A DNA stretch of 24,000 nt, from contig NZ_AUHI01000004.1 of assembly GCF_000423105.1 (NCBI RefSeq), positions 362,810 through 386,809 of the forward strand, given 5' to 3'. Under the pieces are notes generated by a model. The model made no database searches, was not told where the DNA came from, and saw nothing but the letters and a program-made list of their open reading frames with translations. This DNA comes from Halalkalibacillus halophilus DSM 18494. Its GTDB lineage: Bacteria; Bacillota; Bacilli; Bacillales; Alkalibacillaceae. The translations under genes were made by a program, and so were the position numbers. This document shows positions 15,542 to 22,422 of the stretch, piece by piece. Numbering within the stretch: the first letter of the stretch is position 1; every line of letters starts with the position of its first letter.

Positions 15542-15583
15542 AAAAAGCGGGTAAAAGTGTAAATCACTTCTACCCGCTTTGTG
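15541..15583. terminator. Bidirectional terminator shared by convergent ccdC and yneK-like genes
   Basis: A 16-bp stem pairs 15544-15559 with 15565-15580, with one A-C mismatch and a 5-nt loop. An A6 run lies on one side and TTT on the other. The 3' arm overlaps the last codons of the minus-strand gene. Confidence 0.75.
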
Positions 15584-16007
15584 GTTCTAATAGATGTTGA
15601 TATGGTGTAAAGTCAATGTTCTTCTCATTTAAACGTTTTATCAAAAATTTATGATCCCGCTTAGGTGTTGCAAGAATATATCCTTCAATGAGTAGTTCCA
15701 AGGTAATAGACTTTGCTTTTCTTTCTAATGCTAGTCGCCCAATTCTTGCTCCGATCTTTTGTTTGGCAACATCCCGAAAAATTTCTGGGACAGGCTCTAC
15801 CAATTCATTAAGTAACTGCTTTTTCTCGTCACTCCATAAATGAATAGTTTCTTCAATATAAAACTCTTCCCAGTCGATAATTGATTTTCCATCTTCTTTT
15901 GGTAGCTTTTTAAGAAACTTTCGAAACATAAAGTAGCCACCAATGGTAAGCAATCCTAACATAATAAATGACCAAATAACTAATAATATCGCAACGATTC
16001 CAGACAT
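15570..16007 (-). CDS. YneK-like protein (DUF2621), N-terminal TM helix
   Basis: The 145-aa protein is in the syntenic position after ccdC. The family assignment is by recollection of YneK length and layout only. Confidence 0.55.
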   Translation of the reverse strand: MSGIVAILLVIWSFIMLGLLTIGGYFMFRKFLKKLPKEDGKSIIDWEEFYIEETIHLWSDEKKQLLNELVEPVPEIFRDVAKQKIGARIGRLALERKAKSITLELLIEGYILATPKRDHKFLIKRLNEKNIDFTPYQHLLEPQSG

Positions 16008-16049: not shown

Positions 16050-16146
16050 TGGCGGGACTGTGTGGGAATCGAACCCACCAGAGACAACACGTGCCTCTCG
16101 AGCGGTTTTGAAGACCGTGACACGCACCAGCTTTGCAACCAGCCCC
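16050..16146 (-). tRNA. selC: tRNA-Sec (selenocysteine tRNA, anticodon UCA), 97 nt with encoded CCA
   Basis: The minus strand reads GGGGCTGG...GGTCTTCAAAACC...GTGGGTTCGATTCCCAC-A-CAGTCCC-G-CCA. The 7-nt anticodon loop CTTCAAA is identical to E. coli selC, with UCA in the anticodon position. The T arm is GTGGG/TTCGATT/CCCAC. A long variable arm pairs (A)GAGGCA with TGTCTC(T) around the loop CGTGT. The acceptor has 7 bp plus a G-A juxtaposition at the 8th position. The gene is adjacent to selB, selD and selA. I could not fold the D and anticodon stems cleanly by hand. Confidence 0.85.
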
Positions 16147-16348: not shown

Positions 16349-17434
16349 ATGGATAAATCGCTAACATTTATTGAGCCAAGGAGCGCAACAGATGAGCAGT
16401 CTTTCACTAGAATTAATGATGCTGCTAGTAAATGGATTGACAACTATTCGATGAACGTTCATGTCGTTTTCGATGACGATTTTAATATACATAGTGTCAG
16501 TGCATCTGTTAAAAGTTTATTTGGGTATACCCAAGAAGAGGTACTGAGTGCTTCGTTACTTTATTTTATTCATCCTAAACAGCATGAAGAATTAAAAGCA
16601 TTTGTACAGGGACTAGAGGAAAACAGTCGTCAGCGCATCGAGCTTCTTGTTAAAAATGCTAATAGTGAGTATATTCATTCTCAAAGCTATGCAGGAAAAA
16701 TTGTAGACCCTGAAACAGGAAAACCTTATTATGTAGCTGTAGCTCAAGATATATCAGATCAAAAGCAAGCTGCAGAAATGCTAGTCAGATCTGAGAAACT
16801 ATCAACAGCAGGGCAATTGTCTGCCTGTGTTGCACATGAAATAAGAAATCCGATCACTTCTTTAAAGGGTTTCCTTCAATTAATGGATACCAATATGAAG
16901 GGGAAAGAGGCATACCTAAAAATTATGAAAGATGAGATAGAAAAAATTGAAGCAATCTCATCTGAATTATTATATATTGCCAAACCTTCTACGAATACAT
17001 TCCAAGAAGATGATTTAATTATAATGCTTAAAGAAGTATGTACATTAATGCGCTCACAAGCACGAATAAATGATATCAAAATAAAGCAAGATTTTAATAT
17101 GAATCAATTCACACTACATTGTGATCGCTCGCATTTGAAACAGGTTTTTATTAATCTAATTAAAAATGCAATTGAAGCTATGGAAGACCCAGGCACAATA
17201 GAAGTAAATGTCTATTACAGTGACTATTTAACAATTGATGTAATAGATCAAGGTTGCGGGGTTCCTGATGAATTGAAAGCAAAATTAGGGCAACCTTTTC
17301 TAACCACTAAATCAAAAGGGACTGGGCTTGGATTAATGATTTCTAAAGATATTTTAAAGAAACATGATGCCACGATTCAAATAATCGACCATGAGCCAAC
17401 AGGAAGTATCTTTCGTGTTCAATTCTTAAAATAA
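16349..17434 (+). CDS. PAS-domain sensor histidine kinase, cytoplasmic, orphan (sporulation Kin-like HisKA/HATPase_c)
   Basis: A PAS-like N-terminal half (SVSASVKSLFGYTQEEVL...YVAVAQDIS) is followed by an H-box (CVAHEIRNPITSLKGFLQLM) and N/G boxes (INLIKNAIEAM, DQGCGVP, GTGLGLMIS). No TM segment is apparent and no response regulator lies nearby. A GAGGAG RBS sits 9 nt upstream of the ATG. Confidence 0.85.
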   Translation: MDKSLTFIEPRSATDEQSFTRINDAASKWIDNYSMNVHVVFDDDFNIHSVSASVKSLFGYTQEEVLSASLLYFIHPKQHEELKAFVQGLEENSRQRIELLVKNANSEYIHSQSYAGKIVDPETGKPYYVAVAQDISDQKQAAEMLVRSEKLSTAGQLSACVAHEIRNPITSLKGFLQLMDTNMKGKEAYLKIMKDEIEKIEAISSELLYIAKPSTNTFQEDDLIIMLKEVCTLMRSQARINDIKIKQDFNMNQFTLHCDRSHLKQVFINLIKNAIEAMEDPGTIEVNVYYSDYLTIDVIDQGCGVPDELKAKLGQPFLTTKSKGTGLGLMISKDILKKHDATIQIIDHEPTGSIFRVQFLK

Positions 17435-17449: not shown

Positions 17450-19327
17450 ATGTCTCAACGAAATTATACTATCGGTATGGCTGGCCATATAGATCATGGA
17501 AAAACGGAACTTACGAAGGCATTAACTGGGACAAACACAGACAGGTTGAAAGAAGAAAAAGAACGAAGAATATCTATAGAATTAGGGTATGCTCCGCTCC
17601 TCCAATCTGAGGAACAAACGATATCGATTATAGATGCTCCAGGACATGAAAAATTTATTCGTCAAATGATTGCAGGCGTCTATTCCGTTGATCTCGTTTT
17701 ATTAATTGTTGCTGCTGATGAAGGCGTGATGCCACAAACGAAAGAACATATGGAGATTTTACATTATCTCGGCATTGAGAATGTGTGGTTTGTGATCTCC
17801 AAGGTGGATACCGTAGAGGAAGAGATGCTTTCCATTGTAGAAGAAGATTTAAGAGAACATATGAAACAATCATATTATCATGATCAGGCGATTTTTCATG
17901 TGGACTCCGTTAGCTTCCAAGGAATAAAACAATTAAAAGATGCCATCACGCAACACCTAGAGAGTTCACCTGTAAAGGATCAGTTTGGCGAATTCAGACT
18001 TGCAGTTGATCAAGTTTTTTCTATCCATGGGACTGGTACTGTTGTGAGAGGCACTATAATGAGCGGGATTGTGCAAGAAGGCGAAGAGGTTCTACTTCTC
18101 CCTTCAAATAATAGAACTCAAGTTAAAACGATTAGACAGTTTTCAAACAATGTATCTCTTGCTAAGGCGGGAAGTAGGACTGCTCTATCGTTAAGAAACT
18201 TACAAGTGAATGAGATAAAAAGAGGGGAAGTAGTTACCTCTAATTTACAAGCACTTGCTACTAGACGAGTGGACTTGGAGTTAAGGGTTAGTCCGTATTT
18301 AGATAAATGGATTAAACAACGTTCACCTATTAAACTGCATGTTAACACTAGTGAAGCATATGGTAGAATTGTTTTTTTCGATAGGAATAGAGTAGAGGAG
18401 CCAGACGAACTTCTTTATGTTCAAGTTGAATTAGACGACCCAATATATGTCCATAAAGGGGATCGTTTTGTACTTCGAAGGGCAACTCCGGTTGAAACCA
18501 TTGGAGGCGGTCGTATTATAGTCCCACAAGCCTCGAAACATAAATTTGGGATGGATACAGTGGAATGGTTAAAAGAAAGGTCTGAAGCCTCCTTGGAGGA
18601 ACAAATACTATTGTTAATCGAAGAGGATCCGGGAATCGATTTTACCAAATTGAAAAGTCAATTCACCTCCTCTTTGTCAGAAGTAGAAGATAAGTTTCAT
18701 GAATTACAAAAAGAGAGAATCGTACAAATAGATTACAAATTATATACTGTTAATCAGGTGAAATATGCAGAAGATTCGTTAATTAGGACTTTAACAAAAT
18801 TCCATGAAAGTAACCCGATGAAAAAAGGATTAAATAAATCAGAAGTCATTCAATCATTACCTTATCAAACCAAACGTGAAATGACGTTACTTCACTACTT
18901 TATTGACCAAGAAGTTATTGAACAGTCGATGCATTATATTTACCTAAAAGGATTTTCACCTTATGTTCCAGACAACTTAAAGGAAATGGTAGATTCATAC
19001 TTGAACCAGTTGTATAAAGACAAATATGAGGTGAAGGAGTATAGCAATTACTTAACTGAGATGTCAGCTTCAGAGCAAGTAAATGTGATAAACTATTTAA
19101 TTGATCAGAGTCGAATTGAACCTCTAACCGACGAACTAATGATGGATTCTTCAAGGTTTAAAGAGAGTGTGGACCAACTAAAGGGAATTTCTGAAGAGTC
19201 ATTCTCTTTAAAAGAAGCGAAAGATGAATTGGGTCTATCAAGAAAGTATCTTATACCGTTACTAGAATTAATGGATCATAAAGGGATAACCATTCGACAG
19301 GAAAATGTACGTGTATGGAATTCGTAA
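17450..19327 (+). CDS. selB: Selenocysteine-specific translation elongation factor SelB
   Basis: The N-terminal EF-Tu-like G domain (GMAGHIDHGKTELTKALTG, DAPGHEKF, SKVD) is followed by a long C-terminal extension of about 250 aa, as expected for the winged-helix SECIS-binding domains. The protein is 625 aa. The gene starts 15 nt after the kinase stop codon. Confidence 0.9.
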   Translation: MSQRNYTIGMAGHIDHGKTELTKALTGTNTDRLKEEKERRISIELGYAPLLQSEEQTISIIDAPGHEKFIRQMIAGVYSVDLVLLIVAADEGVMPQTKEHMEILHYLGIENVWFVISKVDTVEEEMLSIVEEDLREHMKQSYYHDQAIFHVDSVSFQGIKQLKDAITQHLESSPVKDQFGEFRLAVDQVFSIHGTGTVVRGTIMSGIVQEGEEVLLLPSNNRTQVKTIRQFSNNVSLAKAGSRTALSLRNLQVNEIKRGEVVTSNLQALATRRVDLELRVSPYLDKWIKQRSPIKLHVNTSEAYGRIVFFDRNRVEEPDELLYVQVELDDPIYVHKGDRFVLRRATPVETIGGGRIIVPQASKHKFGMDTVEWLKERSEASLEEQILLLIEEDPGIDFTKLKSQFTSSLSEVEDKFHELQKERIVQIDYKLYTVNQVKYAEDSLIRTLTKFHESNPMKKGLNKSEVIQSLPYQTKREMTLLHYFIDQEVIEQSMHYIYLKGFSPYVPDNLKEMVDSYLNQLYKDKYEVKEYSNYLTEMSASEQVNVINYLIDQSRIEPLTDELMMDSSRFKESVDQLKGISEESFSLKEAKDELGLSRKYLIPLLELMDHKGITIRQENVRVWNS

Positions 19328-19458: not shown

Positions 19459-20517
19459 TTAGTTAACATAAATCGGATATGGTTGTTGTTCAGATACTTC
19501 TCCGATAACCTTAGCTCCGAGTGAGCCAGTAGCATTTAATTTTTCTACATAGGATTTGGCCTGTTCAGCAGGTAGAGAAACTAATAGCCCACCTGAAGTG
19601 ATTGCGTCAGCGAGGATTACCCGTTGAATTTCCGTAATCTCATTTGAGAACGAAATAGATGATTCTAACCATTTTAAGTTTTCTTTACTACCACCAGGTA
19701 TGGCTCCTTTTTCAGCTAGCTCTGAAGTTCCTTTGATTACTGGAACTTGTTCGTTAAAGATCGTAAACGTTTTATTACTACCACGAGCCATTTCTAAAGC
19801 ATGGCCTAATAAGCCAAATCCAGTAACATCTGTAACTGCATGGGCATTACACTCATGTAAAAAAGATGCAGCCTTTTTATTCAATTCTTTCATCCAGTAG
19901 ATTGCTTCATTAGATATATGTTCAGGAGCGAATCCTTTTTTTACAGCTGTAGTAATGATTCCGCCACCAATAGGTTTTGTTAATACAAGTAGATCTCCAA
20001 CTTGACTACTTGTGTTTGTTAAAACTTTATCAGGATGAGCAATACCGGTTACTGCCATGCCGAATTTTGGTTCTAGATCATCGATGGAGTGGCCACCAAT
20101 AATGGAGCCTCCAGCTTCATGGACTTTATCTTCTGCTCCTTGAAGGATAAAAGACAACATATCAGCACCATATTTTTTTACAGAGAAATTCGTAATATTC
20201 AGTGCAGTTTTCACTTCGCCTCCCATTGCGTACACATCGCTCATAGCATTCGCAGCGGCTATTTCACCAAAAGTATAAGGATCATCGACAATAGGTGTAA
20301 AATAATCAACTGTTTGAATGAGAGCAATGTCATCCGTGAGTTTAAACACACCAGCATCGTCTGAACTATTTTGGCTGAATAAAACGTCGTCATTTTTTGG
20401 ATGTACTTTTACTTGACTCAACACGTGAGCCAGTTCGCTTGGCGCGAGTTTACATCCTCAACCAGCTTTGGTTGAAAGAGAAGTTAATCGGATGATTTCA
20501 TCTTCACTTTTATTCAT
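19459..20517 (-). CDS. selD: Selenophosphate synthetase SelD, Sec-containing form (352 codons; codon 20 = in-frame UGA read as selenocysteine)
   Basis: The ORF track starts this gene at 20424 (TTG). Reading the same frame upstream gives ATG(20517) MNKSEDEIIRLTSLSTKAG-TGA-GCKLAPSELAHVLSQV..., which recreates the SelD N-terminal glycine-rich loop. The UGA falls where E. coli SelD has its catalytic Cys (G-C-G-C-K). A GGGGG RBS and a TATAAT -10 (20550-20545) lie upstream. The rest of the protein is a clear SelD/AIR-synthase fold (DDAGVF, DYFTPIVDDPY..GEIAAANAMSDVYAMGG). Confidence 0.88.
20458..20460 (-). other. Recoded UGA (Sec) codon of selD
   Basis: The plus strand TCA at 20458-20460 is a minus-strand TGA, in frame between codons G19 and G21. 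The downstream mRNA (CUCGCGCCAAGCGAACUGGCUCACGUG) contains partial dyads (GCCA/UGGC, CGCG/CGUG) that could form a SECIS-like structure. This was not verified by folding. Confidence 0.8.
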
Positions 20518-20659
20518 TTCCCATACCCCCAATCCACTGATTTCATTATACGTGATATAAGATAAATAGAAAACTAAGCCAATTGGACAATTAAAAATGA
20601 TTGAATTTTAAAGGGTATTCTTTTAAGCTAGAAGTAATATACAACTAGGAGGAATTGGA

Positions 20660-20899
20660 ATGAGCTATAAAGTATCTATCGAATTTTGCATGCAGTGAAA
20701 CTATGCGCCAAAAGCTGCGAGTTTCGCAGATGAATTATTTACACATTTTCGTCATGACATTTCAGAAATGAAACTGATCCCTGCATCGGGTGGAGCATTT
20801 GAAGTAAAAATAGACGGAAATAAAATTTATTCTAAGTTAGATACAGGCGTGTTTCCAAAGTCTGAAGATATAATCAATGATATTCACACCATGAAATAA
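20660..20899 (+). CDS. Rdx-family (SelW/SelT/SelH-like) thioredoxin-fold selenoprotein, 79 codons with in-frame UGA at codon 13 (C-M-Q-U motif); absent from the ORF track
   Basis: The ATG at 20660 follows an AGGAGG RBS (20647-20652). The translation is MSYKVSIEFCMQ-U-NYAPKAASFADELFTHFRHDISEMKLIPASGGAFEVKIDGNKIYSKLDTGVFPKSEDIINDIHTMK. This fits the Rdx pattern IE[YF]C-x-x-[CU]...[RK]A...L...F....L.P...G.FE[VI]..[DN]G..I[YW]SK...G.FP. Both halves are in one frame across TGA 20696-20698. A hairpin follows the UGA and a terminator-like stem follows the stop. Confidence 0.85.
20715..20729 (+). promoter_or_regulatory. Candidate bacterial SECIS hairpin of the Rdx-like gene
   Basis: A perfect 6-bp stem pairs CTGCGA with TCGCAG around the apical GTT. 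Read as a 5-bp stem, the loop is AGTTT. The stem starts 16 nt after the UGA, inside the coding sequence. G/U in the apical loop is typical of bacterial SECIS elements. Confidence 0.6.
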
Positions 20900-20906
20900 T
20901 TAACCC

Positions 20907-20941
20907 AAACCCACCGAATAAGTAAGAATTTCGGTGGGTTT
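20907..20941 (+). terminator. Terminator-like hairpin after the Rdx-like gene (no strong U tract)
   Basis: A 12-bp perfect stem pairs AAACCCACCGAA with TTCGGTGGGTTT, with an 11-nt loop. The following sequence is ATGTATAAAAT rather than a T-run. Confidence 0.55.
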
Positions 20942-21000: not shown

Positions 21001-22422
21001 ATGAACGATAAAATGAGACTTATCCCTTCCATACATCAGCTAATGCTAGATGATCGAATTCAATTCATTCAAAGTGAGTATGAGTTGACCAGTGTAGAAC
21101 TAAAACAAGTATTACAAGAATCTTTGAGTGAATTTAGAGAGTCTATTTTTGCAGAAAAAGTAAGTTTAAATAGCAAAGAAGAAGTAATGGATCATATCTA
21201 TGTTTTAACTAAGAGATATAGTGATCAGATTTCTACACCCAATCTTCAACAAGTAATTAATGCTACAGGAACAGTTCTTCATACAAATCTGGGGCGAGCT
21301 CGCCTTTCTAAATCTTCTCTTGATGCTTTACAACAAATTGGAGCAAATTACTCCTCTTTAGAGTTTGATATCAAAAGTGGTAGGAGGGGATCTAGGCATG
21401 ACCTAGTGGAATCGCAATTAATACATTTAACAGAAGCAGAGGCTGCTATGACAGTTAATAATAATGCGGCAGCGGTCTATCTGATACTGTCTGCTTTTGC
21501 CAAAAATCAAGAAGTAATTGTGTCTAGAGGTGAGTTAGTAGAAATCGGAGGAAGTTTTCGGGTATCTACAATAATGGAAGAAAGCGGCGCACAATTAGTG
21601 GAAGTAGGAACAACGAATAAAACGCACTTATATGATTATACGGAAGCAATAACGTCTGAGAGTAGCATGCTTATGCGTGTCCACACAAGTAACTTTTATA
21701 TGAAAGGTTTCACTTCCAGTGTAGAAAGAGAAGAACTTATTAAAACCTCAAAGCAAGAAGAATTACTTTATTATGAGGATCTTGGAAGTGGCATGATTTA
21801 TGACTTGAAACAGCATCAAATAGGCTCAGAACCTAGTGTGGCCGATGTTATTCGCACAGGCGCAGACCTTGTCTCATTTAGTGGAGATAAGCTTTTAGGA
21901 GGGCCACAAGCTGGGATTATTGTTGGAAAAAAAGAATGGATAAATAAATTAAAGAAGCATCCACTCGCGCGGGTTCTTCGCATGGATAAATTCTCGTATG
22001 CTGCCTTAGAACAGACACTTAAAGATTATACGAAGGGTTCAGATTTTTTAAGAAGTCAAAACCCAACTATTAGGGATATATTAAAGCCTGCTAGTGAACT
22101 GAGGCAAGAGGTAGAAGCAAAATTAGCCGAATTAAATGACTTAAAAATGTTGAAAGTTTACGGAAAAGATATTATATCGAAAGTGGGAGGGGGGACGCTT
22201 CCAGAAGTTGAACTGGATTCATACGGAATTGCAATAAAGTCTGAAAGTATAAATAGTATGGAAATCCAAGAACTTTTAAGAAGTGATCAGCAACCAATTG
22301 TTTGTAGAATCGAACACGAAGCTTGTGTTTTGGATTTTCGAACACTTGATTGGGAAGAACAAAAAAGATGTATGAATGCTATAGTGGAGTTGGATAAACA
22401 ATTACGTGAAGAACTGTTATAA
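21001..22422 (+). CDS. selA: L-seryl-tRNA(Sec) selenium transferase SelA
   Basis: The 473-aa protein carries SelA signatures (INATGTVLHTNLGRA, VSRGELVEIGGSFR) and the PLP-lysine region FSGDKLLGGPQAGIIVGKK. Confidence 0.92.
   Translation: MNDKMRLIPSIHQLMLDDRIQFIQSEYELTSVELKQVLQESLSEFRESIFAEKVSLNSKEEVMDHIYVLTKRYSDQISTPNLQQVINATGTVLHTNLGRARLSKSSLDALQQIGANYSSLEFDIKSGRRGSRHDLVESQLIHLTEAEAAMTVNNNAAAVYLILSAFAKNQEVIVSRGELVEIGGSFRVSTIMEESGAQLVEVGTTNKTHLYDYTEAITSESSMLMRVHTSNFYMKGFTSSVEREELIKTSKQEELLYYEDLGSGMIYDLKQHQIGSEPSVADVIRTGADLVSFSGDKLLGGPQAGIIVGKKEWINKLKKHPLARVLRMDKFSYAALEQTLKDYTKGSDFLRSQNPTIRDILKPASELRQEVEAKLAELNDLKMLKVYGKDIISKVGGGTLPEVELDSYGIAIKSESINSMEIQELLRSDQQPIVCRIEHEACVLDFRTLDWEEQKRCMNAIVELDKQLREELL

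Follow-up and report, generated by a model that had tools for sequence, protein, structure and literature searches.

What does the region between selD and selA of Halalkalibacillus halophilus DSM 18494 encode, and why does it lie among the sel genes? The window (the whole stretch of 24,000 nucleotides that was analysed) had previously been read from its letters alone. This sequence-only reading proposed that the region holds a selenoprotein gene of the SelW-like (Rdx) family, split by an in-frame TGA codon and missed by ordinary annotation, whose embedding among the sel genes suggests a role in selenium handling or in protection of the pathway, rather than that of a generic client. Judged from sequence comparisons, window 20660-20899 is a genuine selenoprotein gene of H. 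halophilus whose 79-residue product belongs to the SelW-like (Rdx) family; the role proposed for it requires a separate discussion.

The split reading frame and its product

The gene opens with an ATG at 20660, meets an in-frame TGA at codon 13 (20696-20698) and closes with a TAA at 20897-20899, and its translation, joined across the TGA (asterisk), reads MSYKVSIEFCMQ*NYAPKAASFADELFTHFRHDISEMKLIPASGGAFEVKIDGNKIYSKLDTGVFPKSEDIINDIHTMK. Both the 79-codon frame, split after 12 codons, and the strong ribosome-binding site of its own that had been claimed for it are confirmed by the window sequence (Table 1). The CxxU motif of the product, C10-M-Q-U13 (20687-20698), is placed right after a hydrophobic strand, VSIEF.

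Table 1. Features of the SelW-like locus and of the sel genes around it (window coordinates).
Feature	Coordinates	Strand	Basis or remarks
SelW-like (Rdx family) selenoprotein gene	20660..20899	+	79 codons plus stop
Shine-Dalgarno AGGAGG of the SelW-like gene	20647..20652	+	7 nt 5' of the ATG; read from the sequence
UGA read as selenocysteine (predicted), SelW-like codon 13	20696..20698	+	TGA conservation; aligned Cys in homologues
Bacterial SECIS apical hairpin (putative)	20715..20729	+	Covariation, RNAalifold, bSECIS rules
Putative sigma-A-type promoter of the SelW-like gene	20601..20629	+	-35 TTGAAT 20601-20606, 17-nt spacer, -10 TAAGCT 20624-20629
Terminator-like 12-bp palindrome (AAACCCACCGAA...UUCGGUGGGUUU)	20907..20941	+	Separates the SelW-like gene from selA
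selD (selenophosphate synthetase), itself a selenoprotein gene	19459..20517	-	TGA 20458-20460; divergent from the SelW-like gene
selA (L-seryl-tRNA(Sec) selenium transferase)	21001..22422	+	Pfam SelA, E 1.3e-137; NCBI WP_027963283.1
selB (Sec-specific elongation factor)	17450..19327	+	Pfam GTP_EFTU, SelB beta-barrel, SelB winged-helix; NCBI WP_027963281.1
selC (tRNA-Sec, anticodon UCA)	16050..16146	-	ARAGORN; Rfam RF01852, 57.7 bits vs gathering score 47

For the family profile searches the selenocysteine (Sec) of the product was written as Cys. The Pfam Rdx model (PF10262) matches with an E-value of 3.4e-22 (78.9 bits, cutoff 22.6) along positions 1-73 of the 74-position profile, a match that spans the TGA, and TIGR02174 (CXXU_selWTH) matches with 66.9 bits (cutoff 34.2); these were the two models against which the joined translation was to be checked, and both score above their cutoffs. 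The top-scoring NCBIfam model is NF041051 (SelTWH_Campy; 82.8 bits, E 1.5e-23, model positions 1-69 of 70), whose equivalog cutoff of 88 bits is not reached, and the product is therefore a relative of that group and not a member. Placement among the Rdx / SelT-SelW-SelH proteins follows from curated cutoffs that are passed, from coverage of the whole domain and from a CxxU that comes after the first beta-strand. A Pfam match of this quality across the TGA, together with the recurrence of the same interrupted frame in 79 of 80 related loci, puts the locus far beyond chance. It is, on the other hand, no new kind of gene, the bacterial SelW-like CxxU family being long known.

Structural comparison leads to the same assignment. 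Sequence searches of the PDB returned six bacterial Cys-form crystal structures from structural genomics and one human Rdx-family protein (E 8e-13 to 4.5e-6), and the CTQC of 2FA8 and 3DEX aligns with the CMQ(U) of the SelW-like protein. The fold was taken from an AF2 model of a natural Cys form that is 66% identical (P0011, from Cytobacillus eiseniae) and stands in for the window protein itself. This homologue model (pLDDT 85.5) runs beta1 (residues 4-11), CxxC (11-14), alpha1 (17-30), beta2, beta3, beta4 and alpha2, which is the thioredoxin-like order beta1-alpha1-beta2-beta3-beta4-alpha2, and Foldseek places it closest to bacterial SelW-related structures (TM 0.81-0.86), followed by mouse SelW (2NPB; TM 0.69), which has the same fold with its CxxU/CxxC in the same position, and then by thioredoxins. 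The proposed Rdx/SelW-like CxxU identity is thus borne out by the Pfam and TIGR02174 matches, by the PDB sequence matches and by the fold of the Cys-form homologue.

The mechanical list of open reading frames holds only the 43-codon tail of the gene (20768-20899), and the corresponding 43-residue fragment (P0027) is the sole product of the locus found in a public collection of 15 billion proteins, which confirms that ordinary annotation had missed it. Most homologues in the collection carry a 'W' at the Sec position. More than 20 metagenomic homologues (P0001-P0022, P0024-P0026) are stored in this way, with Trp in CMQW or CMMW. In the two 'W' homologues that were checked at the DNA level (L082:446-694 and L083:423-656) the codon is TGA, and the 'W' entries are for this reason regarded as gene-caller artefacts, in which TGA on short contigs was read as Trp. 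SelW-like genes are notoriously skipped by annotation, as has been reported for Epsilonproteobacteria (PMC4607533), and the practical value of the present locus lies in the correction of both kinds of entry, the fragment and the homologues with Trp for TGA.

Conservation of the UGA and of the hairpin behind it

The comparison uses 80 loci from a scan that took one genome for each species and turned up 195 relatives. The loci represent at least 15 genera, among them Neobacillus, Cytobacillus, Mesobacillus, Robertmurraya, Rossellomorea, Tenuibacillus, Salinibacillus, Sediminibacillus and Virgibacillus, all within one family-level lineage (Bacillaceae and close relatives). The motif codon is TGA in 79 of the 80 loci and TGC (Cys) in one. 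Residues F9, C10 and M11 on the 5' side of the TGA and N14-A20 on its 3' side are invariant in the relatives; a start codon with a GGAGG-like Shine-Dalgarno sequence lies 11-13 codons upstream of the TGA in the 75 related loci examined for it; and none of the 80 loci has a frameshift, a second stop or a disagreement of frame between the two halves. Conservation thus extends to either side of the TGA and the halves share one frame in 80/80 loci, the two outcomes on which the sequence-only reading had made its proposal depend. The in-frame UGA, between these conserved flanks, aligns with a Cys in the homologues, namely the second Cys of the CxxC of the Cys-form proteins (P0011, P0023 and P0029) and of the PDB structures.

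The sole Cys-form locus among the 80 (L031:5995-6231, from Cytobacillus sp. FJAT-53684) has a neighbouring selD with its TGA retained, and selA, too, is present, though at a greater distance (+1549 nt). The predominance of the Sec form over the Cys form, 79 to 1, fits the statement in PMC1794560 that SelW-like proteins have very few Cys homologues in organisms that use Sec.

These observations bear directly on the idea that the UGA is not recoded at all and simply terminates translation, the locus being either a decaying gene or the source of a 12-residue peptide and/or of the 43-residue C-terminal ORF. Automatic gene calling does yield the 43-residue ORF only; its internal Met, however, lies mid-fold and has no ribosome-binding site with a conserved role. 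Furthermore, a TGA that is kept at the same codon in 79 of 80 loci and flanked on either side by invariant residues, with neither frameshifts nor second stops, a single exception that is itself a Cys codon, a complete Sec machinery next to the gene and a downstream hairpin that covaries at synonymous sites make plain termination barely conceivable.

The hairpin, CUGCGA-GUU-UCGCAG, consists of a perfect 6-bp stem (20715-20720 with 20724-20729) and a GUU loop (20721-20723). It starts exactly 16 nt past the A of the UGA, as had been claimed for it, with a UGA-to-loop distance of 22 nt, and it sits inside the coding sequence, over residues A-A-S-F-A. That it is a SECIS-type element is supported by covariation, which was evaluated in an ungapped alignment of 76 sequences against 500 column shuffles. 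All 450 cells of the stem (75 distinct sequences) hold standard pairs, with no C-A or other mismatch, and two pairs show compensatory double changes, with U-A in place of C-G in 11 sequences and A-U in place of G-C in three. Every variable stem position is a synonymous third codon position. The shuffled alignments give 97.4% pairing and none of the 500 reaches the observed pairing or covariation, while sliding the partner columns lowers pairing from 100% to 19%-66%. Without constraints, RNAalifold returns exactly the 20715-20729 helix and nothing else.

The consensus for bacterial SECIS elements (bSECIS) comprises a loop of 3-9 nt, an upper stem of 4-16 bp, a G in the first two loop positions, the pattern N1-G-[G|U]-N-N2, a UGA-to-loop distance of 16-37 nt and an MFE of -7.5 kcal/mol or lower (PMC13188914). 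The window hairpin agrees with the rules on loop (GUU, or A-GUU-U), stem (6 bp), G position and spacing (22 nt), and the loop-closing pentamers of the relatives, AGUUU (60), GGUCU (7), AGGUU (5) and AGUCU (4), all fit the pattern. As regards energy, the isolated 15-nt hairpin of the window has an MFE of -6.5 kcal/mol, slightly weaker than the threshold, and the median of the relatives is -8.0. In the single-sequence fold of a 71-nt region (MFE -17.9) a competing structure is preferred, in which the UGA region is paired with the 3' arm. Rfam holds no family for the hairpin, tRNA-Sec being the only match. The 5'-UTR of selAB in E. coli reportedly carries a SECIS-like repressor element. A role of that type was considered for the present hairpin and rejected as unsupported, since the hairpin precedes the selA start by about 270 nt, often with another gene in between.

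The weak isolated hairpin and the divergent single-sequence fold could also be taken to mean that the signal for Sec insertion is something other, or something more, than these 15 nt, and that the hairpin is conserved mainly because of the peptide that it encodes (A-A-S-F-A-E): the peptide encoded by the stem is indeed highly conserved, and of the six pairs three are constant in the alignment of relatives. Against this, the positions that do vary are all synonymous and keep their pairing in all 450 cells, more than the shuffles allow, and the four-fold degenerate Ala codons of the stem use only bases that pair. In the Cys-form locus, moreover, two pairs of the former SECIS stem have weakened to G-U wobbles (-3.7 kcal/mol), and the loop motif of the SelW-like hairpin recurs, conserved, downstream of the selD UGA. 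An origin of the conservation in the peptide, with a signal other than or beyond these 15 nt, is accordingly judged very unlikely.

The sel genes and the transcription signals around them

The genes selA, selB, selC and selD are all found in the window, within 5 kb of the SelW-like gene, which argues for a genuine selenoprotein gene. The product of selB is the factor expected to bind the hairpin. The coordinates confirm the arrangement described earlier, in which the SelW-like gene stands head-to-head with selD and directly upstream of selA, the latter being on the same strand and 101 nt downstream.

SelD is itself a selenoprotein, with its in-frame TGA in the context …STKAG-U-GCKLAPSEL…, and this TGA is kept in every related locus that has selD nearby (about 56), including the Cys-form locus. 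The ORF list and the public gene calls give selD 321 residues from an internal GTG; the full gene has 352 codons and starts with an ATG at 20517. The selD mRNAs of the relatives (56 distinct sequences) contain two conserved hairpins 3' of the UGA, the second of which, GCGCA-A-GUU-U-UGCGY, lies 33 nt past the selD UGA and has an A-GUU-U loop like that of the SelW-like hairpin, as would be expected if one SelB reads both. In the window itself (20395-20466, minus strand) the second selD hairpin reads GGCUCA-CGUGU-UGAGUC.

Two further genes adjoin the machinery. A PAS-domain histidine kinase (PAS, HisKA, HATPase_c; 16349-17434, plus strand) ends 15 nt before the start of selB, a gap that suggests co-transcription of the two; the kinase does not belong to the neighbours that the related loci conserve. 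A DUF2621 protein (E 1.5e-67; 15570-16007, minus strand) directly adjoins the tRNA-Sec gene, and we know of no link between DUF2621 and selenium.

Across the 80 related loci, selA lies 3' of the SelW-like gene on the same strand in 79, selD is divergent and immediately upstream in 56, and selB is nearby in approximately 15. The sel island of the relatives is usually located between kbl/tdh-like genes and aconitase, and the neighbourhood of the 80 loci contains no further conserved gene related to selenium. In 52 of them the SelW-like gene and selA are separated by an opposite-strand gene for an Hsp20/alpha-crystallin-like protein (134-150 residues; PF00011, 27.5 bits). An example is L002:6329-6733 (minus strand); H. 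halophilus lacks this gene and has the 101-nt spacer with its palindrome instead.

The transcription signals were assigned from the letters of the DNA, and it is in this sense that we infer promoter and terminator functions at the SelW-like gene. The putative promoter aligns with TTGCAT-17-TAAAAT boxes that are conserved in 48 divergent selD/Rdx intergenic regions; a consensus promoter scan did not call TTGAAT-17-TAAGCT. A promoter-like box for selD in the window is TATAAT on the minus strand. The selD/Rdx intergenic region was also searched for an operator common to both genes; it has no obvious palindrome, and promoter-like -35/-10 boxes for each gene are all that is conserved. On the other side of the gene, the palindrome at 20907-20941 has a folding energy of -20.6 kcal/mol (z = -3.9), and 0 of 200 shuffles are as stable. 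It is perfect, is preceded by an A-run and followed by a U-run, and looks like a bidirectional intrinsic terminator. A simple terminator scan reported nothing between the SelW-like gene and selA; the loop of the palindrome is 11 nt long and its T-run is short. Since this stable palindrome separates it from selA, the SelW-like gene is probably a transcription unit of its own. Control of selA by attenuation or by a leader peptide was considered as well and rejected, given that the terminator-like hairpin lies more than 200 nt from the UGA and that the Hsp20-like gene intervenes in 52/80 loci.

A client of the machinery or an accessory to it

Taken together, the data suggest the following sequence of events. 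Translation would begin at the ATG behind the strong ribosome-binding site and proceed to the UGA at codon 13, where SelB with Sec-tRNA(Sec) would bind the 6-bp hairpin with its GUU loop, and selenocysteine would be inserted instead of termination. The resulting protein is predicted to adopt a small thioredoxin-like fold with its C-M-Q-U redox centre where strand beta-1 ends and helix alpha-1 starts, and most likely alternates between the selenol/thiol and the selenenylsulfide state, as a thiol-dependent oxidoreductase would. Each gene of the sel module probably has its own promoter. The SelW-like gene would lie between selD and selA because, in the Bacillaceae lineage, the machinery for Sec and the main client of that machinery form one compact, co-inherited module. 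The identity of the protein and the predicted mechanism of its synthesis are well supported by the comparisons described above; the actual insertion of Sec at this particular UGA, the redox chemistry and the status of sole client are inferred. As a joint reading, a SelW-like selenoprotein that is made by UGA recoding, acts as a thiol oxidoreductase and is the sole client co-inherited with the Sec machinery appears to us the probable one.

The part of this reading that concerns the client is based on a survey in which H. halophilus DSM 18494 is listed as Sec-utilizing with exactly two known selenoproteins (Peng et al. 2016, Table S2). Sec-containing SelD and the SelW-like protein account for these two, so that the latter is apparently the only client of the Sec machinery in this organism; the match is one of number, given that the table names no families. 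In the same survey B. methanolicus has two selenoproteins and other Bacillales have 0 to 10, and where the formate dehydrogenase FdhA is the sole selenoprotein, its gene is close to the sel genes or in one operon with them (Peng et al. 2016).

The alternative is that the SelW-like protein is an accessory of the pathway, which reduces or re-activates the U-G-C of Sec-containing SelD, delivers selenide, or protects SelA and SelD from oxidation. The tight linkage of the gene to selA, which is immediately downstream on the same strand in 79/80 loci of at least 15 genera and has persisted through several rearrangements while selD, selB and the Hsp20-like gene vary, would likewise be expected if the gene were tied functionally to the pathway. 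In addition, the gene is divergent from selD in 56 loci, in which SelD always has Sec next to a Cys, and the Cys form keeps its position in the presence of both Sec-selD and selA. All 80 loci, however, belong to one family-level lineage, so that the linkage possibly stems from a single ancestral arrangement, and the genes are so close to each other that breakage would be rare even without selection. Nor do the SelW-like gene and selA form an obligate operon, because an opposite-strand gene in many relatives, or a terminator-like hairpin in the window, comes between them. SelW-like selenoproteins are reported from many phyla in the available portions of PMC1794560 and PMC2398784, and these portions make no mention of a linkage to sel genes; Cys forms, for their part, have been solved from Agrobacterium, Pseudomonas, Streptomyces and Vibrio.

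The selenium-handling role that the sequence-only reading had drawn from the embedding among the sel genes is not supported, since no other selenium-handling gene is conserved nearby and FdhA provides a precedent for a sole client that clusters with these genes. The same holds for its preference for selenium handling or pathway protection over a generic client, as the count of two selenoproteins fits a sole client. On this analysis, the clustering of a sole client with its machinery would explain the linkage to selA most simply, and an accessory function is considered unlikely. A narrower version, in which selD, the SelW-like gene and selA are a self-contained unit, the SelW-like protein is a dedicated redox partner of the pathway that, for instance, keeps the U-G-C of Sec-containing SelD reduced or passes selenium on, and the entire Sec apparatus is kept for this protein and SelD in H. 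halophilus and in relatives with two selenoproteins such as B. methanolicus, is in our opinion distinctly doubtful; if it were true, it would be the first function assigned to a bacterial SelW-like protein, a family that is still without one (PMC13188914).

If the SelW-like protein is the sole client, a sel mutant of H. halophilus should have the phenotype that results from loss of this protein. A spore-forming aerobe whose selenoproteome apparently consists of SelD and a SelW-like protein would offer a clean genetic setting, a minimal-selenoproteome system in which SelW-like function may be approached, and the near-invariant place beside selA gives a modest but testable hint of function. Existing knowledge of how selenoproteins are made is left unchanged by the finding.

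The survey of 2016 also lists Virgibacillus, Oceanobacillus, Gracilibacillus and many Paenibacillus with Sec machinery but zero selenoproteins. The TGA gene adjoins selA in Virgibacillus kekensis (L073) and in a strain named Paenibacillus sp. FSL R5-0490 (L005), and on account of these two loci small SelW-like genes may have been missed in some of the zero-selenoprotein genomes.

With respect to known systems, SelW-like CxxU proteins have been a catalogued bacterial selenoprotein family since at least 2006 (PMC1794560, PMC2398784). The window protein shares with the bacterial SelW-like selenoproteins (PF10262/TIGR02174) the full-length domain, the CxxU position, the small size and the fold, and it differs from them in no family-defining feature. 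The bacterial Cys-form Rdx proteins of solved structure (2FA8 Atu0228, 3DEX SAV_2001, 2OBK, 2OJL, 2OKA and 2P0G; E 8e-13 to 3.5e-8) are approximately 30-40% identical to it and have CxxC in the place of its CxxU, in chains of about 100-108 residues as compared with 79. What sets the Bacillaceae subgroup apart is a conserved signature of its own, EFCM[QM]U-NYAPKAASFAEELF, and the near-invariant place directly upstream of selA; no description of this place, or of a linkage of SelW-like genes to selA in Bacillaceae, was found in the literature searched. The closest parallel in organization is provided by the modules in which FdhA is the sole client: there, as here, the machinery and the gene of a client selenoprotein are adjacent in an organism with a minimal selenoproteome, the difference being that the client is a SelW-like protein instead of a formate dehydrogenase, and that SelD is here a selenoprotein itself.
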